Assembly (NCBI RefSeq): GCF_003334355.1
Contig: NZ_QOWP01000020.1
Strand: one strand, 5' to 3'
Length of the DNA: 64,000 nt
Source of the DNA: Escherichia coli
GTDB lineage: Bacteria; Pseudomonadota; Gammaproteobacteria; Enterobacterales; Enterobacteriaceae
Of this stretch, positions 2-15,989 are shown piece after piece (positions within the stretch are counted from its first letter, which is position 1; every line of letters begins with the position of its first letter). The notes beneath the pieces were generated by a model. The model was given only the letters and a program-made list of their open reading frames with translations. It ran no database searches and had not been told where the DNA came from. Made by a program: the position numbers and the translations under genes.

Positions 2-619
2 GAAAAACGAGTATTTTTAGTCATCCTGTTTACCTCTTTCTCAGGGAGTTTAGTCTCCAGGATTTCCGGGGCGGTTCAGAAGGAGGGGTATCGCCTACGC
101 TTTCATACCGGCAATAAGCAACGTATTTATTCCCTTTTGCATGACGGGAGCGCCGATCTCGCTGTTACCGCATCTATGCCTGATGACCGTCTGTACGGCT
201 ATGCACATCTACTGACTGAACGCATGCTCCTTGTTCATGCTCCCGCCATGTCAGAGATCATCGGATCAGAACCTGGTGCTGAAACGCTTGCCTCATTACC
301 GCTGATTGCTTATGACGAAGAGTTGCCACTGATTAGAGCGCTCTGGGCCTCCATGTTTCAGAGAGCCCCTGAGATGCAGGCTACATTCACCATTCCGGAT
401 TTACGTATTATCCGCGACTTGGTCTGTGACGGCCACGGGTGGACAGTGCTGCCGGATTATCACTGTGACAATGACCTGAAAAGTGGTCGCCTGATTTCAG
501 TGACACCTGCAGACCTCGCTCCGACTAATCATCTTTATCTGGTCTGGAACAAAAGGACGGCTAATAACAGCCGAACCGCCTATGTTCGGGATTACATTCT
601 TAAAACGTTTCCGCGTTGA
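2..619 (+). CDS. LysR-family transcriptional regulator, C-terminal effector-binding part only (5' end is off-window)
   Basis: The frame of track ORF 137..619 stays open back to nt 2 (EKRVFLVILFTSFSGSLVSRISGAVQKEGYRLRFHTGNKQRIYSLLHDGSADLAVTAS...). The sequence looks like a LysR substrate-binding domain. No HTH is visible because the N-terminus lies upstream of the window. Confidence 0.65.
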   Translation, partial: EKRVFLVILFTSFSGSLVSRISGAVQKEGYRLRFHTGNKQRIYSLLHDGSADLAVTASMPDDRLYGYAHLLTERMLLVHAPAMSEIIGSEPGAETLASLPLIAYDEELPLIRALWASMFQRAPEMQATFTIPDLRIIRDLVCDGHGWTVLPDYHCDNDLKSGRLISVTPADLAPTNHLYLVWNKRTANNSRTAYVRDYILKTFPR

Positions 620-655
620 TGTTTGAAACGGATGATTGGCGATGCGTATCATAAG

Positions 656-694
656 TTACGTATGTCCGCTTCTGGCACAAAGCAGACGCCCACT
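656..694. repeat. Hairpin repeat copy A (core 664-687: gtccgctt-ctggcaca-aagcagac), preceded by TTAC
   Basis: Read directly from the sequence. 8-nt inverted arms with one mismatch flank an 8-nt spacer. 28/38 nt are identical to copy B at 4329-4367, in direct orientation. Confidence 0.8.
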
Positions 695-749
695 CTCACG
701 CGAATGCTTTGCCCTTGACTTGCCAACAACCGTATCGCTTGCTCCGCAA

Positions 750-2042
750 CTATGGTTTTTTATTAGAATCTTCGCCACTAAATAAATTATAATAAATTGA
801 TTTTATTAGATATCTGTCAGAATCTATATGGTCAGCACGAGTAGCATGCTCTAATGTTTCAAATGCTAGGGTTTGTGCGGCTTCAGCAAAAATTCCAGGC
901 CAACCCTTACTCAGCATCGACAGTCCTTTAAGTACCCTTATCTGAATTTCCCTCATACTGGCACCATCGCGCGCAACAGGTGAGAAAAAGTCTTCAAGTA
1001 GATCGTTATTCTGAAGTGGTGCAACATGTACAGAAGGATATTTCACTTCTATTTCATCAGATTTATTCTGCGCGTAAGCGGAAAGTATACGTACACCTCT
1101 GCCAATGACATCAATGGCGGTTCCAGGATCGTTCACTGCGGGGGAAAGGGCTCGGCAGGCTATTTCGGCCATGACGCTAAGACAAAATCGGGGGTCCTGA
1201 GCAAATGAACGTACATCCGAGACAATAATCGTCTCAAGTAAATCGGTGCTGATTGATGACTCCTGGCCCTGACTCAGGTACAAAACTGGCGTGGACGGAT
1301 GTATGAAACTGCCCGGCTGCGCCACGAGGTATACATGACGGGGATCATTGGTCAGCAGCTTGCTGAGTTTCACCATATCAACATATTCAACATAGCCAAT
1401 CTTTTTCGGATAAACTGCAACCGTTCCTTTCGGCTGTTCATTGTTCTCAAGCCATGGATATCCGCCGAGACAGGGATTTCTTGCTCTCGCAATAAATGTT
1501 TCGATGGCCGCCTGTTCTACTTTTGCCGTTGTCTCACCAACCCTCCCCAGAGAGGTCAAATGCTGTATCCAGCGAAGCAATGTGATGAGGATTAAGGCAA
1601 TGACAACCAGTGTTACAATGAATAAAATGACTCTCCCCCTTTCTCCATAAGCTCCCATATTGAGGGCAATAATCCCTACCAGACTGAAGAGAAAAGAACC
1701 GATGAAGGTGGCCAGTACATTTTGTGTGGTGACGTCTTCAACAACTAAACGAGTAGCTCTGGGAGTCACATTAGTAGTGGCTGAACCGTAGGCTGTGACC
1801 ATGATGCTCAGCGAAAATGTGGTCACTGCCAGCATACTCGATGCCAGTATGTTCAGAATGTTATCGACTGCTTCCGCACCAACCTTCACGGAAACCGACT
1901 CAGGTATCATTGATTTAAAAAGAATTGATAAAAGGGCCGTTATTATTGCGACAATTGCGAATAACGTTGCCCTGAACCATAGTTTTTTAAATGTCTGCTT
2001 CAGCATCCATTTCCAGCGTGAAATCATTCTGCATTCCCTCAT
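750..2042 (-). CDS. Integral membrane protein, DUF2254-like (4 N-terminal TM helices plus a soluble C-terminal domain)
   Basis: 430-aa ORF. Four hydrophobic helices lie in residues ~20-165, including a motif resembling DUF2254 (ATRLVVEDVTTQNVLATFIGSFLFSLVGIIAL). The coding sequence is AT-rich. An alternative start is Met6 (nt 2027). The family assignment is from memory. Confidence 0.55.
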   Translation of the reverse strand: MRECRMISRWKWMLKQTFKKLWFRATLFAIVAIITALLSILFKSMIPESVSVKVGAEAVDNILNILASSMLAVTTFSLSIMVTAYGSATTNVTPRATRLVVEDVTTQNVLATFIGSFLFSLVGIIALNMGAYGERGRVILFIVTLVVIALILITLLRWIQHLTSLGRVGETTAKVEQAAIETFIARARNPCLGGYPWLENNEQPKGTVAVYPKKIGYVEYVDMVKLSKLLTNDPRHVYLVAQPGSFIHPSTPVLYLSQGQESSISTDLLETIIVSDVRSFAQDPRFCLSVMAEIACRALSPAVNDPGTAIDVIGRGVRILSAYAQNKSDEIEVKYPSVHVAPLQNNDLLEDFFSPVARDGASMREIQIRVLKGLSMLSKGWPGIFAEAAQTLAFETLEHATRADHIDSDRYLIKSIYYNLFSGEDSNKKP

Positions 2043-2062
2043 ATTGCAGCCGGGATAAATAA

Positions 2063-2083
2063 ATGCCGCCTCTGTGGCGGCAT
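2063..2083 (-). terminator. Rho-independent terminator downstream of the BCCT transporter gene
   Basis: Stem atgccgcc/ggcggcat with a 5-nt loop. On the minus strand it is followed by tttattta. It lies in the 48-nt gap between the two minus-strand genes. Confidence 0.6.
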
Positions 2084-2090
2084 GTTGCTG

Positions 2091-4094
2091 TTAACGAACC
2101 AGATGCAGGAAGTGCAGGTGTTTTTCGTACTGGTCCAGTATGTCATTAATCAGCTGTTCCTGATTCCAGCCCATTACATCATAATTTTGGCCGCCCTCTT
2201 TGAGATAGACTTCAGCGCGATAATATCGATGTTGTTCACTCTGCTGCTCATCATTATCCAGCGCAGCGAGCGCGAAGGTCGGTGAGTTATACCCGCGAAG
2301 CCTCACTTCATATATATAATTCAGCTCGTTGCCCAAATCGACTTCAAGGCGAATACGATCCTCGGCGGCGTCACTGATGTGGCTTATCGTTCCCTGCTTG
2401 TTAAGTTCCTCCTGAACCAGCGTCATGGCGGGTTGGATAATGTCGTCCATAAAACGTTTCACAAGAGAGCGCTTCGGCAAATACGCGATATTGCGTAACC
2501 TTCTCTGCCAGGGAATTGGGTTACGTGCAGCCGTAGGAGCAATAGTCGCCATGCTAAGGCTTTCACGCTTGGTCAAATCCCGACGCAGGGCTTTTAACAG
2601 TCCGTATATGGATATTAATAAGATAACTGAGAAGGGCAATGCACTCGCTATCGTTACGGTTTGCAACGCACTCAGCCCCCCTGCGATCAGCAGGGCAATA
2701 GCAACAACGCCCATGAGCGATGCCCAGAAAATTCGCTGCCAGACGGGCGTGTTTGCCACCCCACCTGATGCCAGAGTATCCACAACCATTGCCCCCGAAT
2801 CAGCAGACGTTACAAAGAAGACGATGACCATCGCCATTGCAATGAATGACAGCACGGAAGAGAACGGGAAATGCTCCAGGAAATTAAACAGGGCAAGCGC
2901 AACATCCTGCTGAACGGTATTGGCGAGGTCAGTGGCGCCCTGGTTCATGATGAGATAGATGGCGCTGTTTCCAAACACCGTCATCCACATGAGCGTAAAG
3001 CCGGCGGGAACAAACAACACGCCAGTCACGAACTCACGAATTGTCCTGCCGCGGGAAACGCGTGCAATGAACATACCTACAAACGGCGACCATGAAAGCC
3101 ACCATCCCCAGTATAATAATGTCCAGCCCCCCAGCCAGTTGCTCGACTTGGGTTCATACGCGTAAAGGTTGAACGTTTTACTCACCAGTTCCGACAGATA
3201 ACCACCCGTATTTTCCACAAATGACTTCAGCAGAAGCACAGTGGGACCCAGGCACAAGACCAGCGCCAGGAGCAACACCGCCAGGCCCAGATTAAGCTCA
3301 GACAGGATGCGTATTCCCTTGTCCAGGCCGGACACCACCGAAATCGTCGCTAACCCCGTGATGACCACGATCAAAATGACCTGTACCGTTTCATTGATGG
3401 GCACGCCGAAAAGATGGTTCAAACCGGCATTCACCTGCAATACACCGTAACCCAGCGATGTTGCAACGCCAAAGACAGTGCCTATCACGGCGAAGATATC
3501 AACCGCGTGGCCTATAGGCCCGTAAATGCGATCGCCGATAATGGGATAGAGCGCAGAACGCAGCGTTAAAGGCAGACCGTGACGGTAACTGAAAAAGGCC
3601 AGAATCAGCGCCACGATGGCATAAATTGCCCATGCGTGCAGACCCCAGTGGAAGAACGTCAGGCGCATGGCTTCCTTCGCTGCCGCAACGGTCTCTGGAG
3701 TGCCGACAGGTGGCGAAAGATAATGCATCACAGGTTCGGCAACGCCAAAGAACATCAGGCCGATCCCCATCCCTGCCGAAAAAAGCATCGCGAACCAGGA
3801 GTGGTAGCTGAAATCAGGCTGCGCATGGTCTGGGCCCAGCTTTATATCACCGTAACGTGAGAGTCCAAGGAACGTGACGCTCAGTAAAATCAGGGCCACA
3901 GCAAGTATGTAGAACCAGCTGGCATTCGTGAAGATTTGTTGCTGAAGTAGTTTAAAATTTTTGTCGGCGACATCCGGGAATACGGCGGCAAAGGCGACAA
4001 GAAGGAAAATTAGCAAAGCAGATGTAAAGAATACCGCTTTGTTAATCTGGCTTGTAGACTTCTTTGGGGTTGTATCATTTTCACTCATAATCAT
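2091..4094 (-). CDS. BCCT-family transporter, BetT-like (choline/betaine-type osmolyte symporter) with a long cytoplasmic C-terminal domain
   Basis: The 667-aa ORF aligns by eye along its whole length with E. coli BetT (e.g. WFAMLFSAGMGIGLMFFGVAEP, RSALYPIIGDRIYGPIGHAVDIFAVIGTVFGVATSLG, GWTLLYWGWWLSWSPFVGMFIARVSRGRTIREF, C-terminal ILDQYEKHLHFLHL). It is a paralogue, not betT itself. Confidence 0.85.
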   Translation of the reverse strand: MIMSENDTTPKKSTSQINKAVFFTSALLIFLLVAFAAVFPDVADKNFKLLQQQIFTNASWFYILAVALILLSVTFLGLSRYGDIKLGPDHAQPDFSYHSWFAMLFSAGMGIGLMFFGVAEPVMHYLSPPVGTPETVAAAKEAMRLTFFHWGLHAWAIYAIVALILAFFSYRHGLPLTLRSALYPIIGDRIYGPIGHAVDIFAVIGTVFGVATSLGYGVLQVNAGLNHLFGVPINETVQVILIVVITGLATISVVSGLDKGIRILSELNLGLAVLLLALVLCLGPTVLLLKSFVENTGGYLSELVSKTFNLYAYEPKSSNWLGGWTLLYWGWWLSWSPFVGMFIARVSRGRTIREFVTGVLFVPAGFTLMWMTVFGNSAIYLIMNQGATDLANTVQQDVALALFNFLEHFPFSSVLSFIAMAMVIVFFVTSADSGAMVVDTLASGGVANTPVWQRIFWASLMGVVAIALLIAGGLSALQTVTIASALPFSVILLISIYGLLKALRRDLTKRESLSMATIAPTAARNPIPWQRRLRNIAYLPKRSLVKRFMDDIIQPAMTLVQEELNKQGTISHISDAAEDRIRLEVDLGNELNYIYEVRLRGYNSPTFALAALDNDEQQSEQHRYYRAEVYLKEGGQNYDVMGWNQEQLINDILDQYEKHLHFLHLVR

Positions 4095-4428: not shown

Positions 4429-4851
4429 TCACTTCAATAAATACCGAACATCCCCCTGATAAAACGACAATATGCGCTGCATAACTTCGCTCTTCCGGCA
4501 CTCGCGACAGATTATGTTTAGGCGACTGTCGTAGCGACGTATTTCTCCGTCAGGTAATGACCAGATAAGGTCCGGATCAACCACAACCGGTTTCTTCAGC
4601 TTTGCCCTCGATAATTTTTTGCGGGCATTTTGCCAGTCTTTACGAGCCTGTTCAGACGGGAATAACCCGTAGCCAGAATTGTATACATCGCCACTGGCAA
4701 CCAGCTCTCTGGCCAGAACGCTCATCAGATATCTTGTTGCCCCAGTTTTAGCTTCCAGTTGTCGTAACGTCTCGCGCCCACTCTGGCGTACGAGTTCAAG
4801 AACCTGCCCTTTAATTTTTTCCCGCTCTTCTTGTGTAAAAACTTTTGCCAC
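4429..4851 (-). CDS. Hypothetical prophage protein (140 aa), last phage-like ORF before the cargo
   Basis: The ORF is co-directional with, and 40 nt downstream of, the replication gene. The N-terminal part looks winged-helix-like (GRETLRQLEAKTGATRYLMSVLARELV), followed by a basic central stretch. I do not recognise the family. Confidence 0.45.
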   Translation of the reverse strand: MAKVFTQEEREKIKGQVLELVRQSGRETLRQLEAKTGATRYLMSVLARELVASGDVYNSGYGLFPSEQARKDWQNARKKLSRAKLKKPVVVDPDLIWSLPDGEIRRYDSRLNIICRECRKSEVMQRILSFYQGDVRYLLK

Positions 4852-4891
4852 AAGCCCTCCTGAAAATTACCTCATGACCAGAAATTAACAC

Positions 4892-5968
4892 TTACCCCCT
4901 GAAGCCCGGCGGAATTTCGTTATCCGGTTCAGAAATATGATTCACACAACGCTGGTTGTTCGTGCCGCTTACCGGGAGCAACCAGGGGTTCTCAAAATTC
5001 CGGTCCGGTCCAAAAAACGTCGTCGCTCGCTGAACAAATTCCGTTCCCGTTTTCCCGGTAGCCGCCAAGTATCTTGCGTAACGCCTCACGCCATCCAGCA
5101 TGGCCTCTGGTGGCACCCCCTCGCGTAATCTGGCCTTCCAGGCACTGAAAGCGGATTTCTTCGGGTTTGCCCCAGCACGCAACGGGTACTCCCGCCAGAC
5201 CTGTTCGAACACATCCGGATAATCCACTCGTCCCACAGACTGCCCGGTGTTTTCCGGGACTACCCGATCGGCTTCCCGCTGAATGGCGGAATCGGCTTCA
5301 GGCTGCTGCAGTTGGTGTGATTGCTCCGCCCTTGCGGTCATCACCTGCTGCACAGCGCCCGAATCGGCTTTCAGCGCATACGCTGAATCGGCTTCCGGTG
5401 TCGTGCCTGCTGGCTGACCAAGATTGACGGTCTGAACATCCCCTGCCTGGTTCGTGGCGTTTTTTACGCCATGGACCATAGTGTTTTGATCTTCTTGATC
5501 TGTATCTTTATCTGTATCTTTATCTGTCGTGACTCGTCGTGACATGTGCGTGACATTTCGTGACGCGCCGTGACAATCGCCATTTTGTTCCCGCTTTCTT
5601 TCCCTCTCTCGCTGCGCCCTCTTGCGCTCTGCAGGAGATTTTGCGGTTTGCGAAATATTGCCGTTGTCCTCTTTAAGCACCTGGCGTTTTTCCCATCCAG
5701 TGATTAAATCACCATCAAGTACCCGCCCCTGCATCGTCTGCAAAATTGAATCAATTACCTCTTCTGTCACGTCGAGCGCACTTGCCAAATCTTCTGTCGT
5801 GACATCAATGTGACCTCGCGTGACATTTCGTGACGCGCTCACCAGGAGGTGGATATACACTGCCATCACTGTTGCAATTGGCTGTCCTGACACCCTGGCA
5901 ATTGTTCGCCACTTAGGGTCATTTGGCATGTCATGCCATAATCTGAGCCAGGCGTTAGCCATACTCAC
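4892..5968 (-). CDS. Prophage replication protein, YdaU-like (DUF1376-type, lambda O analogue)
   Basis: 358-aa ORF. Its position after the cro/cII-like genes matches the lambdoid replication module. It starts MSMANAWLRLWHDMPNDPKWR. The C-terminal segment YPDVFEQVWREYPLRAGANPKKSAFSAWKARL is typical of prophage replication proteins. The gene contains phased iterons. The family name is from memory. Confidence 0.6.
   Translation of the reverse strand: MSMANAWLRLWHDMPNDPKWRTIARVSGQPIATVMAVYIHLLVSASRNVTRGHIDVTTEDLASALDVTEEVIDSILQTMQGRVLDGDLITGWEKRQVLKEDNGNISQTAKSPAERKRAQRERERKREQNGDCHGASRNVTHMSRRVTTDKDTDKDTDQEDQNTMVHGVKNATNQAGDVQTVNLGQPAGTTPEADSAYALKADSGAVQQVMTARAEQSHQLQQPEADSAIQREADRVVPENTGQSVGRVDYPDVFEQVWREYPLRAGANPKKSAFSAWKARLREGVPPEAMLDGVRRYARYLAATGKTGTEFVQRATTFFGPDRNFENPWLLPVSGTNNQRCVNHISEPDNEIPPGFRG
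5499..5574. repeat. Putative prophage origin, part 1: AT-rich 12-bp tandem (tctgtatcttta x2.4, 5499-5527) abutting five phased CGTGAC iterons
   Basis: CGTGAC occurs at 5528, 5538, 5549, 5559 and 5569, giving spacings of 10/11/10/10 bp. All copies are in the same orientation and lie inside the replication gene. Confidence 0.6.
5793..5838. repeat. Putative prophage origin, part 2: second cluster of four phased (C)GTGAC iterons
   Basis: Copies at 5798, 5809 (tgtgac), 5819 and 5829. The 46-nt block 5793-5838 is a diverged copy of 5523-5568, exactly 270 bp away. It includes a perfect 21-nt repeat gcgtgacatttcgtgacgcgc (5548-5568 and 5818-5838). Confidence 0.6.
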
Positions 5969-6033: not shown

Positions 6034-6459
6034 TCAATGCACAGCCACAATATTTCCTGCAGGGCCACCACGATTCATCTGGTTGAAACCAGCGATCGCC
6101 ACTGCGACAAAATCATCAGCGTCTCTCACCAGTCGTTCCCGCGTCTCCACTAGTTCCCGAAAATAGGCTGAGCTATGGCTGCGCATTCGGGCCACCAGCA
6201 GAGGTGGCATTGCTTTTTCGATAGCTGGTAACAACGCCTGAATTTTTTCAACTGCATCAGGGGTGTCTTTCTCTACCCAGCGGAAAATTTTCTGGGTATT
6301 GCGAGCCAGGGCTTCCGGATGGCTGTCGTCATACAGTTCTGGGAACGTCATACCCAGTTCAAAATAAGCCCTGGTTATTTCAGCTGCCGGAACTTTTTCA
6401 CCGTCCGGATGCGCCCAGGCATTCATCGCCATGCGGATGTGTTCATGCTTGATTTTCAT
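6034..6459 (-). CDS. YdaT-family protein (CII-like regulator of Rac-type prophages)
   Basis: The 141-aa ORF shares its start (MKIKHEHI) and end (..VAVH) with K-12 YdaT as I remember it, but the interior diverges. It sits directly after the cro-like gene. Confidence 0.6.
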   Translation of the reverse strand: MKIKHEHIRMAMNAWAHPDGEKVPAAEITRAYFELGMTFPELYDDSHPEALARNTQKIFRWVEKDTPDAVEKIQALLPAIEKAMPPLLVARMRSHSSAYFRELVETRERLVRDADDFVAVAIAGFNQMNRGGPAGNIVAVH

Positions 6460-6724
6460 GAATCAAGCTCCTAGAAAGTGGTTGTGTTAACATTTTGGTA
6501 TCTTCCAGCTCGGGCCAAATATTCATCCAATCAAAAGGCCTTAGTTGCTGACGTGTAACTTCACCATTACTGGCTCGCTCAATAAGGACACATAACGATG
6601 CCCCTAACACTTGACCTTTACTCAATGCCTTTCTTAGATAACCGATGCTGGTACCACACTCGCATGCAAACATACGCTGTTCATCTGACGAAAGAGAATT
6701 GAGAAATATTCTTAATTCTTCCAT
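6443..6724 (-). CDS. Cro/YdaS-like HTH protein
   Basis: 93-aa ORF transcribed divergently from the repressor gene across the operator region. It has an HTH-like segment (ECGTSIGYLRKALSKGQ) and overlaps the ydaT-like gene by 17 nt. It differs from K-12 YdaS (from memory). Confidence 0.55.
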   Translation of the reverse strand: MEELRIFLNSLSSDEQRMFACECGTSIGYLRKALSKGQVLGASLCVLIERASNGEVTRQQLRPFDWMNIWPELEDTKMLTQPLSRSLIHENQA

Positions 6725-6752
6725 AGCTACTCCTTAGTAAACACAGCAAAGA

Positions 6753-6830
6753 ATACCCATAGGTAAACAAAAGTCAATACCCACAGGTTGTTTACCTTGC
6801 AGTAATCGCATCTATTATTTACCTATGGAC
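6753..6830. promoter_or_regulatory. Operator cluster between the cro-like and repressor genes (OR-like)
   Basis: There are three copies of a 13-14-bp palindromic motif ATACCyAyrGGTAt: atacccataggta (6753-6765), atacccacaggtt (6777-6789) and a weaker tttacctatggac (6818-6830). The weaker copy overlaps the repressor ATG at 6825. Confidence 0.6.
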
Positions 6831-7244
6831 AAATATGAATTTAGACGACAGCAACTCATCAAAATTCGTGATGAGAAATGCGATGGTAAAGCGGTTAACG
6901 TGGCCAGAAAGATCGGGCGCGAGCCTTCTTATGTATCAAGAATGTTGTACCCAGAGGGGAAAAAGGGAAAAAAACGGATCGCTGATGATATGGTGGAGAT
7001 TATCGAAGAGTCCTTTGGGTTACCCCGGGGATGGATGGATGGTATCGTTTCATCATCAACGAACACAGCCTCCAGTTATGAAACAAGGGTTCTAACGCCA
7101 CGACAACGTATTTTTTTAGATCTCTTAGACGAACTGCCAGAAAGTGAAGCGGATAACTTATTAAAAACTCTTGAAGAGAAAAAACAGTATTACAATATGA
7201 TCTACGAAGAAATCCGTAAAAAGAAAGCACAAAACGCATCATAG
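6825..7244 (+). CDS. Prophage repressor (RacR/CI-like HTH protein)
   Basis: 139-aa ORF divergent from the cro-like gene. It has an HTH (GKAVNVARKIGREPSYVSRML) and is flanked on both sides by the same operator motif. There is no Shine-Dalgarno sequence before the ATG. Confidence 0.6.
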   Translation: MDKYEFRRQQLIKIRDEKCDGKAVNVARKIGREPSYVSRMLYPEGKKGKKRIADDMVEIIEESFGLPRGWMDGIVSSSTNTASSYETRVLTPRQRIFLDLLDELPESEADNLLKTLEEKKQYYNMIYEEIRKKKAQNAS

Positions 7245-7286
7245 CTCACCAAACAACTAGTCACCAGTTAAGACACCGTAAAAAGT

Positions 7287-7324
7287 TACCCATGGGTATT
7301 TACTTTTTAAATACCTATGGGTAT
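7287..7324. promoter_or_regulatory. Second operator pair downstream of the repressor gene (OL-like)
   Basis: tacccatgggta (7287-7298, with a perfect palindrome acccatgggt) and atacctatgggtat (7311-7324). This is the same motif as at 6753-6830. Confidence 0.6.
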
Positions 7325-7498
7325 CCTTCTTTTCATACCAACCCACCCCGCCCCACAGAATGCAGGGCAATACTTCGAGTTACCAGGCAGTGGTCAGGGG
7401 TTAAGTAGCCAGCCCGAGGCGTAAGAACATGACGGCGGGATTCAAATTTTGCAGTGCAGCAGTTAGTTCCGCCACCCGGCGTTAAGGGGAGAGATAAG

Positions 7499-7633
7499 AT
7501 GGTGCATTACGAAGTAGTTCAGTATTTGATGGATTGTTGCGGTATCACTTACAACCAGGCTGTGCAGGCTTTACGCAGCAACGACTGGGATCTCTGGCAG
7601 GCAGAAGTCGCTATACGTAGCAACAAGATGTGA
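7499..7633 (+). CDS. ydaG: Rac prophage small protein YdaG (44 aa)
   Basis: Below the ORF-track cutoff. My translation is MVHYEVVQYLMDCCGITYNQAVQALRSNDWDLWQAEVAIRSNKM, which I recognise as K-12 YdaG. Confidence 0.8.
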   Translation: MVHYEVVQYLMDCCGITYNQAVQALRSNDWDLWQAEVAIRSNKM

Positions 7634-7643
7634 GATTCGCAAA

Positions 7644-7799
7644 ATGCAAAAAATCGACCTCGGCAACAACGAATCCCTGGTGTGCGGCGTGTTCCCCAAC
7701 CAGGATGGAACGTTCACTGCCATGACGTATACCAAAAGCAAAACATTTAAAACCGAAACTGGTGCGCGCCGATGGTTGGAGAAGCACACAGTAAGCTAA
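7644..7799 (+). CDS. ydaF: Rac prophage small protein YdaF (51 aa)
   Basis: Below the ORF-track cutoff. My translation is MQKIDLGNNESLVCGVFPNQDGTFTAMTYTKSKTFKTETGARRWLEKHTVS. Confidence 0.8.
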   Translation: MQKIDLGNNESLVCGVFPNQDGTFTAMTYTKSKTFKTETGARRWLEKHTVS

Positions 7800-8284
7800 C
7801 GATTAAAACGTCTACTCCTGCTGTTCCAGAATAACTTCATAAAATGGGAGTATTTTTCGGTGACGAGATAATAAGAACAGTTTGCGCTATCACTCTGATG
7901 TTGAATGATGCCCTTCCGTTCTAATTTTTTCATAACCGGGTTACGGCAAGGAGAAGTGATAATAAGATTTCCTGTTTTAAGGAAATCTTTAAATACAGCG
8001 ATTTCTTTCTCAGATAAACGAAGCAATACTCGTTGCTCTGGTAGTAATGAATAATGCTTTTGAATATGTGCTCGCAATCTTGAGAAGGAAATGGCGACCA
8101 CGAAAGAAAAGGCAAAAACGATAATCTGAAAGAGCCAAGGTATTTCAGTATAAGCATTGAATGCGACAGTAAACTCTTTCGGTATCAGCCAGAGAGTGAG
8201 ACCAAAAATGATAATCGTATACATAAGTCTTTCGAGTGGCTCGTTAGCAAAAAGTTTCAACAATGGAGTAAATACATCCAACAT
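7796..8284 (-). CDS. sieB: Superinfection exclusion protein SieB
   Basis: Track ORF 7796..8407 contains the K-12 SieB sequence from Met42 (MLDVFTPLLKLFANEPLERLMY...). This gives the known 162-aa product. Confidence 0.9.
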   Translation of the reverse strand: MLDVFTPLLKLFANEPLERLMYTIIIFGLTLWLIPKEFTVAFNAYTEIPWLFQIIVFAFSFVVAISFSRLRAHIQKHYSLLPEQRVLLRLSEKEIAVFKDFLKTGNLIITSPCRNPVMKKLERKGIIQHQSDSANCSYYLVTEKYSHFMKLFWNSRSRRFNR

Positions 8285-8725
8285 ATCAATAACTCTCAAC
8301 TGTAAGGGTATTGAAATGTTAACACAAGCTCTCGCTGTAGGGGTATAGCCGAGACCACCGAAGCCCGGAGGTGGTGAAATAAAACCGGGCACAACACGAA
8401 GGCGCATTTCCGATATCCATAAAGAGTCGGTCTTGTCTGTTAAATTTAAATGGTGGGAGTGCGCCTCCGGTTGTAAATAACGACATTGCTGTGTGTAGTC
8501 CTGGCGGCATCAGTTTTTTTCTTGAAGTTCGGCTGATGTCCGCCCTTTTTAAAGTGAATTTTGTGATGCGGTGAATGCGGCTAAGCGCACGTGGCACAGT
8601 TAAAAGTCATGTTAGTCCTTATTGGTTTGGGTGGGAAAGCCGACTGTAATTGTTAACTGGTTGCAGTCACCTGGAGGCACCAGACACCGCATCAACAAAG
8701 TTCATTTGTAAAAATGGAGATAATT

Positions 8726-8947
8726 ATGATTGCACATCACTTCGGAACTGATGAAATACCACGTCAGTGTGTGACTCCTGGCGATTATGTTCTTCATGAA
8801 GGCCGGACATATATTGCCTCGGCAAACAATATTAAAAAGCGAAAACTATATATTCGTAACCTGACCACAAAAACATTCATTACTGACCGCATGATTAAAG
8901 TCTTCCTCGGTCGTGATGGTTTACCTGTAAAGGCGGAGTCATGGTGA
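8726..8947 (+). CDS. kilR: Rac prophage FtsZ inhibitor KilR
   Basis: 73-aa product [38 protein letters not shown]... within track ORF 8714..8947. Confidence 0.9.
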
Positions 8948-9117
8948 TGACTAAGAAAATAAAATGTGCTTACCACCTTTGCAAAAAAGACGTTGAAGAA
9001 AGCAAAGCTATTGAAAGAATGCTTCACTTCATGCACGGGATTTTATCAAAAGACGAACCGAGAAAATATTGCAGTGAAGCTTGTGCCGAAAAAGACCAGA
9101 TGGCACATGAACTTTAA
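8947..9117 (+). CDS. ydaE: Rac prophage Cys4 small protein YdaE (56 aa)
   Basis: Below the ORF-track cutoff. The product is [56 protein letters not shown]. Its ATG overlaps the kilR stop (gTGATGa). Confidence 0.85.
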   Translation: MTKKIKCAYHLCKKDVEESKAIERMLHFMHGILSKDEPRKYCSEACAEKDQMAHEL

Positions 9118-9191
9118 TTAATTGACTATTCGAAACTGAATTTATGCCAGAAATGGCAGGTATTCGCTCAACCTTAATTAAGGAGAAAAAC

Positions 9192-9467
9192 ATGATTACC
9201 AATTATGAAGCCACTGTTGTAACTACCGATGACATTGTTCACGAGGTGAATCTGGAAGGAAAGCGCATTGGCTACGTAATTAAAACAGAAAATAAAGAAA
9301 CCCCATTCACTGTGGTTGATATCGATGGTCCATCAGGCAACGTAAAAACACTTGATGAAGGTGTCAAAAAAATGTGCCTGGTGCATATCGGAAAGAATCT
9401 GCCCGCAGAAAAAAAAGCCGAATTTCTGGCAACTCTAATTGCAATGAAATTAAAAGGTGAAATCTGA
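9192..9467 (+). CDS. racC: Rac prophage protein RacC
   Basis: 91-aa product MITNYEATVVTTDDIVHEVNLEGKRIGYV... A strong SD (aaggagaaaaacATG) precedes the start. It lies inside track ORF 9144..9467. Confidence 0.9.
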   Translation: MITNYEATVVTTDDIVHEVNLEGKRIGYVIKTENKETPFTVVDIDGPSGNVKTLDEGVKKMCLVHIGKNLPAEKKAEFLATLIAMKLKGEI

Positions 9468-9472
9468 AAGAA

Positions 9473-9497
9473 ATAGCCTGCGTATGGCGCAGGCTAT
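9473..9497 (+). terminator. Hairpin between racC and recE (possible attenuator or terminator; no T-run)
   Basis: 10-bp perfect stem atagcctgcg/cgcaggctat with a 5-nt loop. Confidence 0.35.
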
Positions 9498-9568
9498 GAA
9501 CAGTGTGTATCCGGCAAGATCATTCACTGAACAAAACGAATTTTAATCTGAGTTGAGGTTAAAAAACA

Positions 9569-12169
9569 ATGAGCACAAAACCACTCTTCCTGTTACGGAA
9601 AGCGAAAAAATCATCCGGTGAACCTGACGTCGTCCTGTGGGCAAGCAACGATTTTGAATCGACCTGTGCCACTCTGGACTACCTGATCGTTAAGTCAGGT
9701 AAAAAACTGAGCAGCTATTTTAAAGCTGTTGCCACGAATTTTCCTGTCGTTAATGACCTGCCCGCTGAAGGTGAGATCGATTTTACCTGGAGTGAACGCT
9801 ATCAACTCAGCAAAGACTCCATGACATGGGAACTAAAACCGGGAGCAGCACCAGACAACGCTCACTATCAAGGCAATACCAACGTCAACGGCGAAGACAT
9901 GACTGAGATTGAGGAGAATATGCTACTCCCAATTTCTGGCCAGGAACTGCCCATTCGTTGGCTTGCTCAACACGGCAGCGAAAAACCGGTAACGCACGTT
10001 TCACGCGACGGACTCCAGGCATTACACATTGCTCTGGCTGAAGAACTACCGGCTGTTACTGCCCTGGCTGTTTCCCACAAAACCAGCCTGCTCGACCCGC
10101 TGGAAATTCGCGAACTCCACAAACTGGTTCGTGACACTGACAAAGTTTTCCCTAATCCTGGTAATTCAAACCTGGGACTGATAACTGCTTTTTTCGAAGC
10201 ATACCTGAACGCTGACTACACCGATCGAGGACTGCTGACAAAAGAGTGGATGAAGGGTAATCGTGTTTCACACATCACTCGCACGGCTTCCGGTGCTAAT
10301 GCTGGCGGCGGAAACCTCACCGATCGCGGCGAAGGTTTCGTACACGATCTGACGTCACTGGCGCGCGACGTAGCCACTGGCGTACTGGCCCGTTCAATGG
10401 ATCTGGACATCTATAACCTTCATCCGGCACACGCTAAACGCATTGAGGAAATTATCGCTGAAAATAAACCGCCCTTTTCTGTTTTCCGCGACAAATTCAT
10501 CACCATGCCTGGCGGGCTGGATTATTCCCGCGCCATCGTGGTTGCGTCCGTAAAAGAAGCACCAATTGGGATCGAGGTCATCCCCGCGCACGTCACTGAA
10601 TATCTGAACAAAGTACTGACTGAAACCGATCATGCCAACCCTGATCCGGAAATCGTGGATATTGCCTGCGGTCGCTCCTCTGCCCCGATGCCGCAGCGAG
10701 TAACAGAAGAAGGAAAACAGGATGATGAAGAAAAACCGCAACCATCTGGAACAACGGCAGTTGAACAGGGAGAGGCTGAAACAATGGAACCGGACGCAAC
10801 TGAACATCATCAGGACACGCAGCCGCTGGATGCTCAGTCACAGGTAAATTCTGTTGATGCGAAATATCAGGAACTGCGGGCAGAACTCCATGAAGCCCGG
10901 AAAAACATTCCATCAAAAAATCCTGTCGATGACGATAAATTGCTTGCTGCATCACGTGGTGAATTTGTTGACGGAATTAGCGACCCGAACGATCCGAAAT
11001 GGGTAAAGGGGATCCAGACTCGCGATTGTGTGTACCAGAACCAGCCAGAAACGGAAAAAACCAGCCCAGATATGAATCAACCTGAGCCAGTAGTGCAACA
11101 GGAACCGGAAATAGCCTGCAATGCCTGCGGCCAGACTGGCGGGGATAACTGCCCTGACTGTGGTGCGGTGATGGGCGACGCAACATACCAGGAAACATTC
11201 GATGAAGAGAGTCAGGTTGAAGCTAAGGAAAATGATCCGGAGGAAATGGAAGGCGCTGAACATCCGCACAATGAGAATGCTGGCAGCGATCCGCATCGCG
11301 ATTGCAGTGATGAAACTGGCGAAGTCGCAGATCCCGTAATCGTAGAAGACATAGAGCCAGGTATTTATTACGGAATTTCGAATGAGAATTACCACGCGGG
11401 TCCCGGTATCAGTAAGTCTCAGCTCGATGACATTGCTGATACTCCGGCACTATATTTGTGGCGTAAAAATGCCCCCGTGGACACCACAAAGACAAAAACG
11501 CTCGATTTAGGAACTGCTTTCCACTGCCGGGTACTTGAACCGGAAGAATTCAGTAACCGCTTTATCGTAGCACCTGAATTTAACCGCCGTACAAACGCCG
11601 GAAAAGAAGAAGAGAAAGCGTTTCTGATGGAATGCGCAAGCACAGGAAAAACGGTTATCACTGCGGAAGAAGGCCGGGAAATTGAACTCATGTATCAAAG
11701 CGTTATGGCTTTGCCGCTGGGGCAATGGCTTGTTGAAAGCGCCGGACACGCTGAATCATCAATTTACTGGGAAGATCCTGAAACAGGAATTTTGTGTCGG
11801 TGCCGTCCGGACAAAATTATCCCTGAATTTCACTGGATCATGGACGTGAAAACTACGGCGGATATTCAACGATTCAAAACCGCTTATTACGACTACCGCT
11901 ATCACGTTCAGGATGCATTCTACAGTGACGGTTATGAAGCACAGTTTGGAGTGCAGCCAACTTTCGTTTTTCTGGTTGCCAGCACAACTATTGAATGCGG
12001 ACGTTATCCGGTTGAAATTTTCATGATGGGCGAAGAAGCAAAACTGGCAGGTCAACAGGAATATCACCGCAATCTGCGAACCCTGTCTGACTGCCTGAAT
12101 ACCGATGAATGGCCAGCTATTAAGACATTATCACTGCCCCGCTGGGCTAAGGAATATGCAAATGACTAA
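9569..12169 (+). CDS. recE: Exodeoxyribonuclease VIII RecE
   Basis: 866-aa ORF, the same length as K-12 RecE. It has an acidic central region and a C-terminal nuclease domain, and is followed by the overlapping recT. Confidence 0.95.
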
Positions 12170-12971
12170 GCAACCACCAATCGCAAAAGCCGATCTGCAA
12201 AAAACTCAGGGAAACCGTGCACCAGCAGCAGTTAAAAATAGCGACGTGATTAGTTTTATTAACCAGCCATCAATGAAAGAGCAACTGGCAGCAGCTCTTC
12301 CACGCCATATGACGGCTGAACGTATGATCCGTATCGCCACCACAGAAATTCGTAAAGTTCCGGCGTTAGGAAACTGTGACACTATGAGTTTTGTCAGTGC
12401 GATCGTACAGTGTTCACAGCTCGGACTTGAGCCAGGTAGCGCCCTCGGTCATGCATATTTACTGCCTTTTGGTAATAAAAACGAAAAGAGCGGTAAAAAG
12501 AACGTTCAGCTAATCATTGGCTATCGCGGCATGATTGATCTGGCTCGCCGTTCTGGTCAAATCGCCAGCCTGTCAGCCCGTGTTGTCCGTGAAGGTGACG
12601 AGTTTAGCTTCGAATTTGGCCTTGATGAAAAGTTAATACACCGCCCGGGAGAAAACGAAGATGCCCCGGTTACCCACGTCTATGCTGTCGCAAGACTGAA
12701 AGACGGAGGTACTCAGTTTGAAGTTATGACGCGCAAACAGATTGAGCTGGTGCGCAGCCTGAGTAAAGCTGGTAATAACGGGCCGTGGGTAACTCACTGG
12801 GAAGAAATGGCAAAGAAAACGGCTATTCGTCGCCTGTTCAAATATCTGCCCGTATCAATTGAGATCCAGCGTGCAGTATCAATGGATGAAAAGGAACCAC
12901 TGACAATCGATCCTGCAGATTCCTCTGTATTAACCGGGGAATACAGTGTAATCGATAATTCAGAGGAATAA
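12162..12971 (+). CDS. recT: Single-strand annealing recombinase RecT
   Basis: 269-aa product from [24 protein letters not shown]... The ATG overlaps the recE stop. It lies inside track ORF 12105..12971. Confidence 0.95.
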
Positions 12972-12979
12972 TTCAGCCT

Positions 12980-12998
12980 GGCGGTGTAATGCACCGCC
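12980..12998 (+). terminator. Hairpin after recT
   Basis: Stem ggcggtg/caccgcc with a 5-nt loop. A T-run (atatttttt) begins about 11 nt downstream. Confidence 0.35.
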
Positions 12999-13027
12999 AA
13001 CTTGAAATATTTTTTATGAGAAAAATT

Positions 13028-13222
13028 ATGAGATATGACAATGTTAAACCATGTCCATTTTGTGGTTGTCCATCAGTAACGGTGAAAGCCATTTCAGGAT
13101 ATTACCGAGCGAAGTGTAACGGATGCGAATCCCGAACCGGTTATGGTGGAAGTGAAAAAGAAGCACTCGAAAGATGGAATAAACGAACCACTGGAAATAA
13201 TAATGGAGGTGTTCATGTATAA
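13028..13222 (+). CDS. ralR: Restriction alleviation protein / type I toxin RalR (Lar)
   Basis: 64-aa zinc-ribbon product MRYDNVKPCPFCGCPSVTVKAISGYYRAKCNGCESRTGYGGSEKEALERWNKRTTGNNNGGVHV. Confidence 0.9.
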   Translation: MRYDNVKPCPFCGCPSVTVKAISGYYRAKCNGCESRTGYGGSEKEALERWNKRTTGNNNGGVHV

Positions 13223-13424
13223 AATTACCGCCACTATTGAAAAGGAAGGTGGCACTCCTACTAACTGGACAAGATATTCAAAATCTAAACTAACGAAATC
13301 AGAATGCGAAAAAATGCTCTCAGGTAAAAAAGAAGCAGGCGTTTCCAGAGAGCAGAAAGTAAAACTGATAAATTTTAATTGCGAGAAACTTCAGTCCTCG
13401 AGAATTGCATTGTATTCAAATTAA
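13215..13424 (+). CDS. ydaC: Rac prophage protein YdaC
   Basis: 69-aa product MYKITATIEKEGGTPTNWTRYSKSKL... It overlaps the ralR stop by 8 nt. Confidence 0.85.
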   Translation: MYKITATIEKEGGTPTNWTRYSKSKLTKSECEKMLSGKKEAGVSREQKVKLINFNCEKLQSSRIALYSN

Positions 13425-13502
13425 AACTTCATAGCTGATTATTAATAATCAACATCGGGCGTCAATTTCAGTCTAACATTGGCGCCTGCCAGAGGTGATG
13501 CG

Positions 13503-13718
13503 ATGGCACAAGTAATCTTTAATGAAGAGTGGATGGTTGAATACGGCCTGATGCTTCGCACTGGTCTGGGGGCCAGACAAATTGAAGCATACCGCCAGAA
13601 CTGTTGGGTGGAGGGCTTCCACTTCAAACGAGTATCTCCTTTAGGTAAGCCAGACAGCAAACGAGGGATTATCTGGTACAACTATCCAAAGATAAATCAG
13701 TTTATCAAAGACTCATGA
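13503..13718 (+). CDS. xisR: Rac prophage excisionase XisR (YdaQ)
   Basis: 71-aa product [35 protein letters not shown]..., immediately upstream of intR. Confidence 0.85.
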
Positions 13719-13719
13719 T

Positions 13720-14955
13720 ATGTCTAAATTACCAACAGGTGTCGAGATTAGAGGTAGATACATTCGCATCTGGTTCATGTTTCGAGGAAAACGATGTCGG
13801 GAAACATTAAAAGGCTGGGAGATTACAAACAGTAATATTAAAAAGGCCGGAAATTTAAGAGCGCTGATAGTTCATGAAATAAACTCCGGTGAATTTGAGT
13901 ATTTAAGACGTTTTCCCCAGTCCAGCACTGGGGCAAAAATGGTGACAACGAGAGTCATAAAAACGTTCGGAGAGCTTTGTGATATCTGGACAAAAATTAA
14001 AGAGACAGAGTTAACAACAAACACAATGAAGAAAACGAAATCACAATTAAAAACACTCAGAATAATAATTTGTGAAAGTACCCCGATATCACATATTCGT
14101 TATAGCGATATCTTAAACTACCGGAATGAACTGCTGCATGGAGAAACGCTTTACCTGGATAATCCAAGATCCAACAAAAAAGGAAGAACCGTGCGCACAG
14201 TTGATAACTATATCGCCCTGCTCTGTTCGCTGTTGCGTTTTGCGTATCAGTCGGGATTTATATCAACCAAACCATTTGAAGGAGTAAAAAAATTACAGCG
14301 AAACAGAATAAAGCCTGATCCGTTATCTAAAACAGAATTCAATGCATTAATGGAAAGTGAAAAAGGACAGAGCCAGAACTTGTGGAAATTTGCCGTTTAC
14401 TCAGGACTTCGTCACGGGGAACTGGCAGCTCTGGCGTGGGAGGATGTGGATCTCGAAAAGGGAATAGTGAATGTCAGAAGAAACCTGACGATACTTGATA
14501 TGTTCGGTCCCCCAAAAACAAATGCCGGGATCCGAACAGTAACACTACTGCAGCCTGCTCTTGAAGCACTGAAGGAGCAATACAAACTGACCGGGCATCA
14601 TCGCAAAAGCGAAATCACCTTTTATCATCGGGAGTACGGCAGAACCGAAAAGCAAAAACTGCATTTTGTTTTCATGCCCAGGGTGTGTAACGGAAAACAA
14701 AAACCTTATTACTCGGTAAGCAGTTTGGGGGCAAGGTGGAATGCAGCAGTAAAACGTGCTGGTATTCGCCGCCGTAATCCGTACCATACGCGGCATACTT
14801 TTGCCTGCTGGCTGTTGACGGCAGGAGCGAACCCGGCATTTATAGCCAGCCAAATGGGGCATGAAACTGCGCAGATGGTGTATGAAATTTACGGTATGTG
14901 GATTGATGACATGAACGACGAACAGATAGCCATGTTGAATGCGCGGTTATCGTAG
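13720..14955 (+). CDS. intR: Rac prophage tyrosine integrase IntR
   Basis: 411-aa ORF with the C-terminal catalytic region (..NPYHTRHTFACWLLTAGANPAFIASQMGHETAQMVYEIY). It lies next to the ttcA junction. Confidence 0.95.
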   Translation: MSKLPTGVEIRGRYIRIWFMFRGKRCRETLKGWEITNSNIKKAGNLRALIVHEINSGEFEYLRRFPQSSTGAKMVTTRVIKTFGELCDIWTKIKETELTTNTMKKTKSQLKTLRIIICESTPISHIRYSDILNYRNELLHGETLYLDNPRSNKKGRTVRTVDNYIALLCSLLRFAYQSGFISTKPFEGVKKLQRNRIKPDPLSKTEFNALMESEKGQSQNLWKFAVYSGLRHGELAALAWEDVDLEKGIVNVRRNLTILDMFGPPKTNAGIRTVTLLQPALEALKEQYKLTGHHRKSEITFYHREYGRTEKQKLHFVFMPRVCNGKQKPYYSVSSLGARWNAAVKRAGIRRRNPYHTRHTFACWLLTAGANPAFIASQMGHETAQMVYEIYGMWIDDMNDEQIAMLNARLS

Positions 14956-15006
14956 TTGCAAAGTTTGCCCCCAATTTGCCCCATTTAGTACCAGAGAACT
15001 GAAATA

Positions 15007-15942
15007 ATGCAAGAAAATCAACAAATTACAAAGAAAGAACAATACAACCTGAACAAATTACAAAAACGTCTGCGTCGTAACGTGGGCGAAGCCATTGCTG
15101 ACTTCAATATGATTGAAGAAGGCGATCGCATCATGGTTTGCCTCTCCGGGGGTAAAGACAGCTATACCATGCTGGAGATTCTGCGCAATTTGCAGCAAAG
15201 CGCGCCAATCAATTTTTCGCTGGTGGCTGTTAACCTCGATCAAAAGCAACCGGGCTTCCCGGAACACGTTCTGCCCGAGTATCTTGAAAAGCTGGGCGTT
15301 GAGTACAAGATTGTTGAAGAGAATACTTACGGTATCGTGAAAGAGAAGATTCCAGAGGGCAAAACCACTTGCTCACTGTGTTCTCGCCTTCGTCGCGGTA
15401 TCCTTTATCGTACCGCAACGGAACTGGGGGCGACGAAGATCGCGTTGGGTCACCATCGTGACGATATCCTGCAAACGTTGTTCTTAAATATGTTCTACGG
15501 CGGTAAGATGAAAGGTATGCCTCCGAAACTGATGAGCGATGATGGCAAACATATCGTTATTCGTCCGCTGGCCTACTGCCGCGAGAAAGATATTCAGCGA
15601 TTTGCCGATGCAAAAGCGTTCCCGATTATTCCGTGCAACCTGTGCGGTTCACAGCCTAACCTGCAACGTCAGGTGATTGCTGACATGTTGCGTGACTGGG
15701 ATAAACGTTATCCAGGGCGTATCGAGACGATGTTCAGCGCGATGCAGAATGTGGTGCCGTCGCATCTGTGCGATACCAACCTGTTCGATTTCAAAGGCAT
15801 CACCCACGGTTCTGAAGTGGTTAACGGGGGTGATCTGGCGTTTGATCGCGAAGAGATCCCACTACAACCGGCGGGCTGGCAGCCAGAAGAAGATGAAAAT
15901 CAGTTGGATGAGTTACGGCTGAATGTGGTTGAAGTGAAATAA
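15007..15942 (+). CDS. ttcA: tRNA 2-thiocytidine(32) synthetase TtcA
   Basis: 311-aa ORF with the PP-loop SGGKDS and Cys motifs. It matches K-12 TtcA. In Rac lysogens the 5' end is supplied by the prophage. Confidence 0.95.
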
Positions 15943-15952
15943 CCAGGATAGC

Positions 15953-15976: not shown

Positions 15977-15989
15977 TACTCTTATGGAG

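Follow-up and report, generated by a model that had tools for sequence, protein, structure and literature searches.

A probable lambda-like immunity switch of uncharacterised specificity in a Rac-type prophage of Escherichia coli

Immunity switches of the lambdoid type have been dissected in phage lambda, in the CP-933P prophage and in the Rac prophage of Escherichia coli K-12. Here we compare these systems with a candidate switch that occupies positions 6034-7498 of a 64,000-nucleotide stretch of E. coli DNA (contig NZ_QOWP01000020.1 of RefSeq assembly GCF_003334355.1). This stretch, called the window below, carries a Rac-type prophage at ttcA (intR 13720-14955; ttcA from 15007). The lambda features used for comparison are general knowledge, and are also summarised in PMC8630535. 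For CP-933P, experiments have established a leaderless transcript from the repressor-maintenance promoter (PRM), the rightward and leftward promoters (PR and PL), the left operators (OL), and a repressor-establishment promoter (PRE) activated by the YdaT protein (PMC8630535). The leaderless mRNA for its repressor, PaaR2, was proven by rapid amplification of 5ʹ cDNA ends (5ʹ RACE) and N-terminal sequencing, and its YdaT, which activates the PRE-like promoter, is not toxic when expressed (PMC8630535). CP-933P YdaT footprints on TTGATT-N6-AATCAA at the ydaS/ydaT junction (PMC9986795). The RacR-YdaS-YdaT module of K-12 has also been described (PMC5700373, PMC9638921, PMC11879457). Its strongest racR promoter gives a leaderless mRNA, as determined experimentally (PMC9638921). 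The YdaT of this module binds ATGATTCATGAAAATCAA, a site whose spacer contains the ydaT ATG, and raises the activity of a reverse racR promoter 29-fold (PMC11879457). Depletion of RacR increases expression of ydaF, ydaG, kilR, ydaE and racC by 40- to 70-fold (PMC11014345).

The features described below make it very probable that the region in the window is a complete lambdoid immunity switch of uncharacterised specificity, whose repressor would join a helix-turn-helix (HTH) domain of the type found in phage mEp043 to a non-cleavable, DicA-like tail. The repressor gene (6825-7244, + strand, 139 amino acids) is divergent from a cro-like gene (6443-6724, − strand, 93 amino acids), which encodes a YdaS-related HTH protein, has the Shine-Dalgarno sequence AAGGAG and would be the first gene of the PR operon. 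A ydaT-type gene (6034-6459, − strand, 141 amino acids) presumably encodes a functional analogue of lambda CII. All three open reading frames (ORFs) are present at the places given in an earlier reading of this DNA made without database searches (the sequence-only reading), whose proposed likeness to the arrangement of right operators (OR) and OL in lambdoid phages is also borne out in the form of a lambda-like OR/OL immunity switch. Over 1297 bp the region is 100% identical in strain Combat11I9, where RefSeq labels the products 'toxin YdaT family protein', 'transcriptional regulator' and, for the repressor, 'hypothetical protein'. The analysis establishes sequence, conservation, promoter geometry, homology and breakpoints, from which binding, activation, a leaderless start, termination and looping are predicted.

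Operators and promoters around the repressor gene

The sequence-only reading listed five copies of a 14-bp palindromic pattern, ATACCYAYRGGTAT, at coordinates that prove to be displaced by one or two bases. Four of these copies are genuine, with one mismatch to the pattern at 6753-6766, two at 6777-6790, one at 7286-7299 and none at 7311-7324, whereas the fifth is a half-site that is absent even from the list of matches with up to three mismatches. Comparison with relatives refines the consensus to WTACC-N4-GGTAW. Three exact copies of this sequence are seen, all within 572 bp, versus 0.25 expected per 64 kb, and the window-corrected probability of such clustering is about 4e-7; a chance origin of the palindromes was rejected for this reason. 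The looser pattern is common, giving 28 matches to ATACCYAYRGGTAT at three or fewer mismatches versus 14.6 expected in 64 kb, and therefore only sites with at most two mismatches and the refined consensus carry weight. At two or fewer mismatches, the sole match beyond the immunity region is at 33260.

Three sites of the refined type are located in the 100-bp intergenic region between the cro-like and repressor genes. OR1 (6753-6766, ATACCCATAGGTAA) fits WTACC-N4-GGTAW exactly and overlaps the −10 hexamer of PR, with its centre at about −16.5 from the predicted PR start. OR2 (6777-6790, ATACCCACAGGTTG), which has a weak right half, lies 24 bp from OR1 and is centred at −40.5 and −41.5 from the predicted starts of PR and PRM, respectively. 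OR3 (6792-6805, TTACCTTGCAGTAA) has one mismatch to the refined consensus, lies on the −35 hexamer of PRM and is centred at −26.5 from the predicted PRM start. In the sequence-only reading, the third site in this region was the copy over the repressor ATG; judged by the comparison with relatives, the conserved third OR operator is 6792-6805, which had been overlooked. Two further exact sites are found beyond the repressor gene. OL2 (7286-7299, TTACCCATGGGTAT) ends with the T that forms the first base of the PL −35 hexamer and is centred at −41.5 from position 7334, and OL1 (7311-7324, ATACCTATGGGTAT) overlaps the PL −10 hexamer with its centre at about −16.5 from 7334.

The promoters themselves are closely interwoven with these sites. 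A promoter scan called both the PR-like promoter (6750-6777, − strand; TTGACT at 6777-6772, N16, TATTCT at 6755-6750; 9/12) and the PRM-like promoter (6791-6818, + strand; TTTACC-N16-TATTAT). The PL-like promoter (7299-7327, + strand; TTTACT-N17-TATCCT; 8/12) was read by hand and faces ydaG, ydaF, kilR, recET and the genes beyond. This promoter was accepted despite its score chiefly because the fusion of hexamers and operators is conserved. In all eight aligned loci, the PR and PL hexamers occupy the same place relative to the operators, with the −35 hexamer beginning at the final T of the distal operator (GGTAT/TGACA-like) and the −10 hexamer beginning inside the proximal operator (GGTA/WNNT).

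Conservation was assessed in nine loci: the window, its O157:H7 variant, phage mEp043, and loci from Serratia, Yersinia, Salmonella (two), Pantoea and one metagenome. The called repressor start of the Pantoea locus is displaced, and its site positions are shifted by about 11 bp. Sites at −72 to −74 and at −33 or −34 from the repressor ATG are present in eight of the nine loci, with the Pantoea counterparts at −62 and −22. The left half (CAATACC) of the site near −48 is visible by eye in every one of the nine intergenic regions, although a match with at most one mismatch is found in only two. A downstream pair of sites 25-26 bp apart occurs in eight loci, between +42 and +1448 from the repressor stop codon, and no such pair was found in the Yersinia stretch examined. 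Across loci the half-sites are retained while the central 4 bp vary, and substitutions between cassette variants spare or even improve the half-sites, as in the O157 variant, whose −33 site (OR3) is perfect (TTACCTTGCGGTAA). Between the nine loci, identity in the repressor DNA-binding domain is about 50-99%. The cro-like protein has 52-73% identity to its Cro counterparts in the seven other aligned loci with these operators (70% for mEp043). Because operators, Cro and the repressor DNA-binding domain are inherited together, they can be regarded as one specificity unit.

The start codon of the repressor is fixed by the conserved N-terminus MDKYE and, as the sequence-only reading correctly stated, the ATG at 6825 lacks a Shine-Dalgarno sequence. 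The A of this codon is the seventh base past the PRM −10 hexamer. The same geometry recurs in seven of eight relatives, which have a −10-like hexamer at 6 nt from the ATG and lack a Shine-Dalgarno sequence; the remaining one is Pantoea, with its displaced start. Since the −10 hexamer ends 6 nt from the ATG and a Shine-Dalgarno sequence is lacking, a leaderless repressor mRNA is predicted, which supports, again as a prediction, what had been suggested earlier.

A putative terminator hairpin (7287-7333, + strand; terminator scan, 16 pairs) includes both OL palindromes, paired with each other, and a U-rich tail, TCCTTCTTTT. This element would be the analogue of lambda t_imm. Its 16-bp stem is followed by UCCUUCUUUU, and the RNA fold has a predicted energy of −24.1 kcal/mol (z −4.3). 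The hairpin is a probable intrinsic terminator of the repressor transcript, and the OL element is read as having a dual role, serving as operators in DNA and as a terminator in RNA. Because the repressor gene and PL are co-directional, this terminator would keep PRM transcripts out of the kilR operon.

These features suggest a mechanism in which the repressor binds the 14-bp palindromes WTACC-N4-GGTAW. Occupancy of OR1 and OR2, which cover the PR −10 hexamer and flank its −35 hexamer, would shut off cro, ydaT and the replication genes. As in lambda, OR2 at −41.5 would be placed to stimulate PRM, while binding to OR3 on the PRM −35 hexamer might provide negative autoregulation. Transcription from PRM would begin at or beside the A of the ATG to yield the leaderless mRNA, and the OL palindromes in this transcript would pair to form the terminator hairpin. 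OL2 and OL1 repeat the OR1/OR2 geometry on PL, and would silence ydaG, ydaF, kilR, recET and xis/int. The Cro-like protein is expected to act on the same operators, and YdaT, as the CII analogue, would bind 6449-6466 and turn on reverse transcription towards the repressor gene. In this scheme, a cassette spanning 6466-7333 would take the place of the RacR/YdaS unit of K-12 Rac. Each of these elements has experimental precedent in the sister systems CP-933P and K-12 Rac, which was counted in favour of the proposed switch.

Repressor architecture and comparison with described systems

The repressor has a full-length match to phrog_5736 (E 4e-70). Residues 1-86 are 65% identical to the cI protein of the plaque-forming lambdoid phage mEp043, and residues 89-134 (46 amino acids) are 33% identical to the DicA C-terminus (BLASTP 1e-7), with an NCBIfam DicA match of the tail (E 3e-5) that is far under the cutoff. 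An AlphaFold2 model, with a confidence (pLDDT) of 83, contains helices at residues 3-18, 23-30, 34-40 and 54-63, a disordered linker at 76-87 and a helical hairpin at 92-138. Residues 34-40 (SYVSRML), which form helix 3 of the model and are the putative recognition helix, are identical in mEp043 cI. Foldseek returned weak matches to XRE-type proteins and phage repressors, the best being to Rep of the Salmonella phage SPC32H, a non-cleavable repressor (E 1e-3, template-modelling (TM) score 0.46), and a sequence search of the PDB yielded chance-level matches only. A Pfam search detected no Peptidase_S24 self-cleavage domain in the 139-residue protein, and the C-terminus is modelled as the helical hairpin; RecA-stimulated self-cleavage is therefore not expected. 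Homologues in the databases fall into two groups, one of 135-140 amino acids with the same architecture (E. coli, Salmonella, Serratia and Yersinia) and one of 220-240 amino acids in which the same N-terminal domain is fused to Peptidase_S24 (PF00717).

An overlapping ORF in the +1 frame (6835-7095) is used as the start of the repressor in some database entries (MNLDD...), which then continue into the true C-terminus. These entries are frameshifted variants or gene-calling errors of an unannotated repressor.

The predicted specificity is of the mEp043 type, since this phage shares 65% identity in the repressor DNA-binding domain, 70% in Cro, the putative recognition helix, the half-sites at −73, −48 and −33 together with an OL pair, and a −10 hexamer 6 nt before the ATG. 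Its cI, however, has 228 amino acids and homologues with Peptidase_S24, and is presumably cleavable during the SOS response. It also differs in having lambda-type cII and N genes, and an OL located 408 bp past cI, after another gene. In the literature library that was searched, neither a published analysis of mEp043 immunity or operators nor a description of a WTACC-N4-GGTAW operator was found. The tail invites comparison with DicA of the Qin prophage and with SPC32H Rep (PDB 5D50), which, like the window repressor as modelled, have about 135-140 amino acids, an N-terminal HTH and a C-terminal helical domain. The C-terminal 46 amino acids and the location of the O157 cassette in a dicB-type prophage add to the likeness with DicA, but the DNA-binding domain is not DicA-like. 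The SPC32H Rep match is weak, as noted above, and no antirepressor was identified in the window.

The locus resembles lambda in its divergent repressor and cro genes, tripartite operator with OR1 and OR2 24 bp apart, operator beside the PRM −35 hexamer at about −42, and leaderless repressor mRNA (predicted in the window). Further shared features are a second operator set on PL past the repressor gene, a terminator between the repressor gene and PL, and a CII-type activator with its site at the cro/cII junction. There is no sequence similarity between the two, and the operators are 14 bp long in the window versus 17 bp in lambda. The window OR3 is located on the PRM −35 hexamer, 15 bp from OR2, whereas that of lambda is on the −10 hexamer and start. 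In addition, the window has two OL sites only, a repressor without an S24 domain, no rexAB, no N, and a terminator built from the OL operators themselves.

CP-933P matches the window in gene order and logic, and has almost the same YdaT protein and an identical YdaT box consensus. The differences are found in the operators, which in CP-933P are 18-bp repeats of the GTTTAGTAA type, and in the repressor, for which the comparison was made at the N-terminus only (MQKKE... in PaaR2 versus MDKYE... in the window). The window also lacks the paaA2-parE2 toxin-antitoxin pair found behind the CP-933P repressor gene.

K-12 Rac occupies the same chromosomal site and has the same early-left arm, 99.9% identical from position 7334, with an operator pair around PL at the homology boundary and a YdaT box that contains the ydaT ATG in its spacer. 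The immunity proteins differ, as the sequence-only reading had stated. BLASTP gave no match between the window repressor and RacR, which are unrelated in sequence, and YdaS aligns at 54% over 28 amino acids only. Overall, the YdaS and YdaT proteins belong to the same families but are 28% and 33% identical to their window counterparts, respectively. For the cro-like protein, the Pfam YdaS_toxin match (25.8 bits) is under the 30-bit cutoff, and phrog_35 is matched with E 1e-22. racR has a Shine-Dalgarno sequence besides its leaderless promoter. The K-12 Rac operators are of the form WTAGGC-N3-GCCTAW, with only one pair in the racR-ydaS spacer and one just beyond racR, and none occur in the 64-kb window. 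From these comparisons, K-12 Rac and the window share the OR/OL design, and specificity alone is exchanged.

In MG1655, the pair past racR (NC_000913.3, 1419629-1419668) is spaced by 25 bp and lies around TTGACA-N17-TATAGT, which faces ydaG-ydaF-kilR. The RacR operators described in the searched literature are those in the racR-ydaS spacer only.

The YdaT box and the boundaries of the exchanged cassette

The YdaT-like protein is near-identical to PDB 3C4R (E 4e-92), matches CP-933P YdaT (8BT1, E 5e-80), and is assigned to Pfam YdaT_toxin (E 7e-10) and to phrog_163, 'CII-like transcriptional activator' (E 9e-46). The sole perfect copy of TTGATT-N6-AATCAA in the 64 kb is at 6449-6466 (TTGATTTTCATGAATCAA on the + strand), a site that the sequence-only reading had not listed. 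On the gene strand it reads TTGATT-CATGAA-AATCAA, so that the ydaT ATG is in the spacer. In sequence and position, this YdaT box (OM) matches those footprinted in CP-933P and K-12 Rac. By analogy with these systems, YdaT is predicted to act at 6449-6466 and to activate reverse (PRE-like) transcription towards the repressor gene.

Only one other YdaT box with no more than one mismatch is found in the 64 kb, where about 0.14 would be expected. This box (13435-13452, CTGATTATTAATAATCAA) has one mismatch, lies about 50 bp upstream of xisR/intR, and is also present in K-12, of which the arm is 99.9% identical. It could be the analogue of the lambda PI promoter that is activated by CII.

The right-hand boundary of the exchanged DNA is sharp. 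From 7334 to 18955 the window is 99.905% identical to MG1655 (blastn), and to the left of 7334 a blastn comparison with MG1655 found no match except 30 bp at 6436-6465. The shared island coincides with the YdaT box, and the breakpoint at 7333/7334 coincides with the predicted +1 position of PL. The sequence-only reading had anticipated both the K-12-like character of the DNA from ydaG to intR and a mosaic breakpoint near 7250-7500. Its broader idea, an exchange of immunity and replication modules, holds in that both differ from K-12, but a second cassette boundary near 6466 was missed. This left-hand boundary is apparent from other genomes, in which matches to ydaT alone, beside other cro types, stop at 6464-6471, while matches to the PL leader alone, beside other immunity types, start at 7334-7346. 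Because ydaT-only matches end at about 6466 and leader-only matches start at 7334, the exchange unit is placed at about 6466-7333. This unit of about 870 bp holds cro, OR, the repressor gene and OL, and is flanked by two conserved linkers.

At 80% coverage or more, the cassette is found, 94-100% conserved, in 813-822 of 5426 complete E. coli genomes (about 15%) and in two prophage contexts. Carriers include O157:H7 and O111/O103 strains, and in O157:H7 the cassette is 94.6% identical and resides in a dicB-type prophage. In an evenly spaced sample of 40 rows, two had the full Rac junction and seven the other, Qin-like context. When 50,697 phage records were searched at the DNA level, matches were confined to the ydaT third of the region, and none of these records had the window cro and repressor genes at 85% identity or more.

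The linker that bounds the cassette on the right is the conserved PL leader (7334-7498, + strand), which begins with the first base of K-12 identity. This 165-nt sequence adjoins at least four immunity types, namely those of K-12 Rac, the window, the O157 dicB-type prophage and phage Tritos, and a query that included it matched in some part in 3791 of the 5426 genomes. The leader may serve as a linker for recombination, or may act in regulation or antitermination. An Rfam search with 7334-7498 gave no match, and the idea that the leader is a structured, put-like antiterminator RNA was dropped because its fold is no better than that of shuffled sequences (z −0.26) and Rfam offered no support.

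The replication module to the left of ydaT (4429-5968) encodes a 358-residue replisome organiser (phrog_3729) and a DUF977 protein, and in gene order and sizes it is like that of phage Tritos and unlike ydaUVW of K-12. Since this module is Tritos-like, the whole right arm, beyond the immunity cassette, differs from K-12.

Alternative explanations, implications and neighbouring genes

Several observations weigh against the proposed switch. The Pfam search with the repressor gave no match and thus no HTH domain, so that the HTH assignment depends on homology to annotated cI proteins, the AlphaFold2 model and Foldseek matches that are weak (best E 1e-3). Since the operators co-vary with Cro as well as with the repressor, comparison cannot assign either protein to a given site. 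PL scores only 8/12, which is below the promoter-scan threshold, the PR −10 hexamer is weak, and the PR −35 hexamer of the O157 variant is weaker still (TTGGCT). The right half of OR2 is poor, and the OR2 and OR3 centres are separated by 15 bp versus 23 bp in lambda, such that neither joint occupancy nor a lambda-style order of filling is assured. Binding, transcripts and phenotype of the window module are predictions, and the prophage is cryptic, so that the switch could be decaying.

It is unlikely that the copy over the ATG (6819-6832, TTACCTATGGACAA) rather than 6792-6805 is the functional third operator, through which PRM would be autorepressed. O3 of K-12 RacR does overlap the racR ATG (PMC9638921), and the O157 variant retains the half-site TTACCT, part of which is also found in Salmonella. 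However, four mismatches (counted by hand) leave only the left half fitting, and the resemblance to an operator is partly forced because the codons ATG-GAC-AAA are conserved, ATGGAC being constrained by the Met-Asp codons. Six of the eight related loci (mEp043, Serratia, Yersinia, the metagenome, Pantoea and the Salmonella LexA-type locus) have nothing similar, and counterparts of the copy are confined to the E. coli and Salmonella lineage; the −33 site, in contrast, is in eight of nine loci and at −22 in Pantoea. Operator function for this copy, as claimed in the sequence-only reading, is thus doubtful. That the downstream palindromes are only a rho-independent terminator of the repressor gene, with no PL or OL, is very unlikely, even though a 16-bp hairpin precedes TCCTTCTTTT and the promoter scan did not call PL. 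Each arm of this hairpin repeats the OR1 14-mer, and both the spacing (24-25 bp) and the placement relative to −35 and −10 hexamers match those at PR. In relatives, where the pair is located 0.4-1.4 kb past the repressor gene with other genes in between, promoter hexamers are still present in it. Moreover, at the corresponding position K-12 Rac has a pair of its own operators flanking a near-consensus promoter, and expression of the genes downstream increases 40- to 70-fold when RacR is depleted.

A decaying relic whose features persist without regulating is quite unlikely, albeit in keeping with the defective nature of Rac-like elements. The prophage is truncated and interrupted on the left by cargo genes and IS1, and frameshifted or miscalled versions of the repressor exist in databases. 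Against this, all three ORFs are intact, the cassette is highly conserved in 813-822 genomes and two prophage contexts, the substitutions in variants such as OR3 of O157 spare or improve half-sites, and kilR downstream of PL would make repression selectable. Least probable, and hardly to be expected, is that the palindromes are bound mainly by Cro while the 139-residue protein uses other repeats, such as GTTTAC/GTAAAC at 6738, 6763, 6790 and 6817. The operators co-vary no less tightly with Cro than with the repressor DNA-binding domain, these extra symmetric GTTTAC-type repeats are present in the OR region, and CP-933P has two overlapping classes of repeat (PMC8630535). Most of the GTTTAC words, though, coincide with outer flanks of the same operators or with the PRM −35 hexamer, both proteins protect overlapping sites in lambda and CP-933P, and the recognition helix of the repressor is invariant wherever the TACC half-site is kept.

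The sequence-only reading also raised the possibility that loss of this repressor is toxic, by analogy with the essential racR gene of K-12. This analogy appears transferable only partly. Because the window YdaT is near-identical to the non-toxic CP-933P protein and only 33% identical to the toxic K-12 YdaT, toxicity from the PR side is unsupported. PL reads into an unchanged kilR, however, and so loss of the repressor may still be harmful; lethality on derepression through PL and kilR is plausible on these grounds.

The specificity of the repressor and its operators seems undescribed, while the design is that already dissected in lambda, CP-933P and K-12 Rac, and the current understanding of lambdoid switches is unchanged. 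The locus exposes an annotation gap that affects about 15% of complete E. coli genomes, in which the repressor is a 'hypothetical protein' and the YdaT gene is a 'toxin'. It also offers an example of modular phage evolution, with an exchange unit bounded by the PL transcription start and the YdaT box. Testable predictions are that the operators are bound, that the repressor transcript is leaderless, that immunity to mEp043-like phages is insensitive to SOS, and that loss of the repressor is lethal via PL/kilR rather than YdaT. As a tentative extension, which we consider possible but doubtful, a single pair of DNA-binding domain and Cro might be served by two interchangeable C-termini, S24 as in mEp043 and DicA-like as in the window, with WTACC-N4-GGTAW as an undescribed immunity specificity. 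If this were true, the defective prophage would confer SOS-proof immunity, protecting about 15% of E. coli strains against superinfecting mEp043-type phages, and OL operators that double as the terminator of a leaderless transcript would make for an unusually compact switch of 870 bp.

Outside these modules, non-phage cargo is found directly to the left of the replication genes (137-4094), and encodes a LysR regulator, a DUF2254 protein and a BCCT transporter. Cargo farther left comprises an MFS transporter and a gamma-glutamylcyclotransferase, and the matching genome then continues with IS1, hokD and lambdoid nin-region genes. A DicF-like RNA match at 8490-8545 scores 39 bits, short of the gathering score of 48, and 8547-8733 has an STnc100-like match (28 bits). 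Both are upstream of kilR, where the K-12 annotation has the small RNA (sRNA) KilS.

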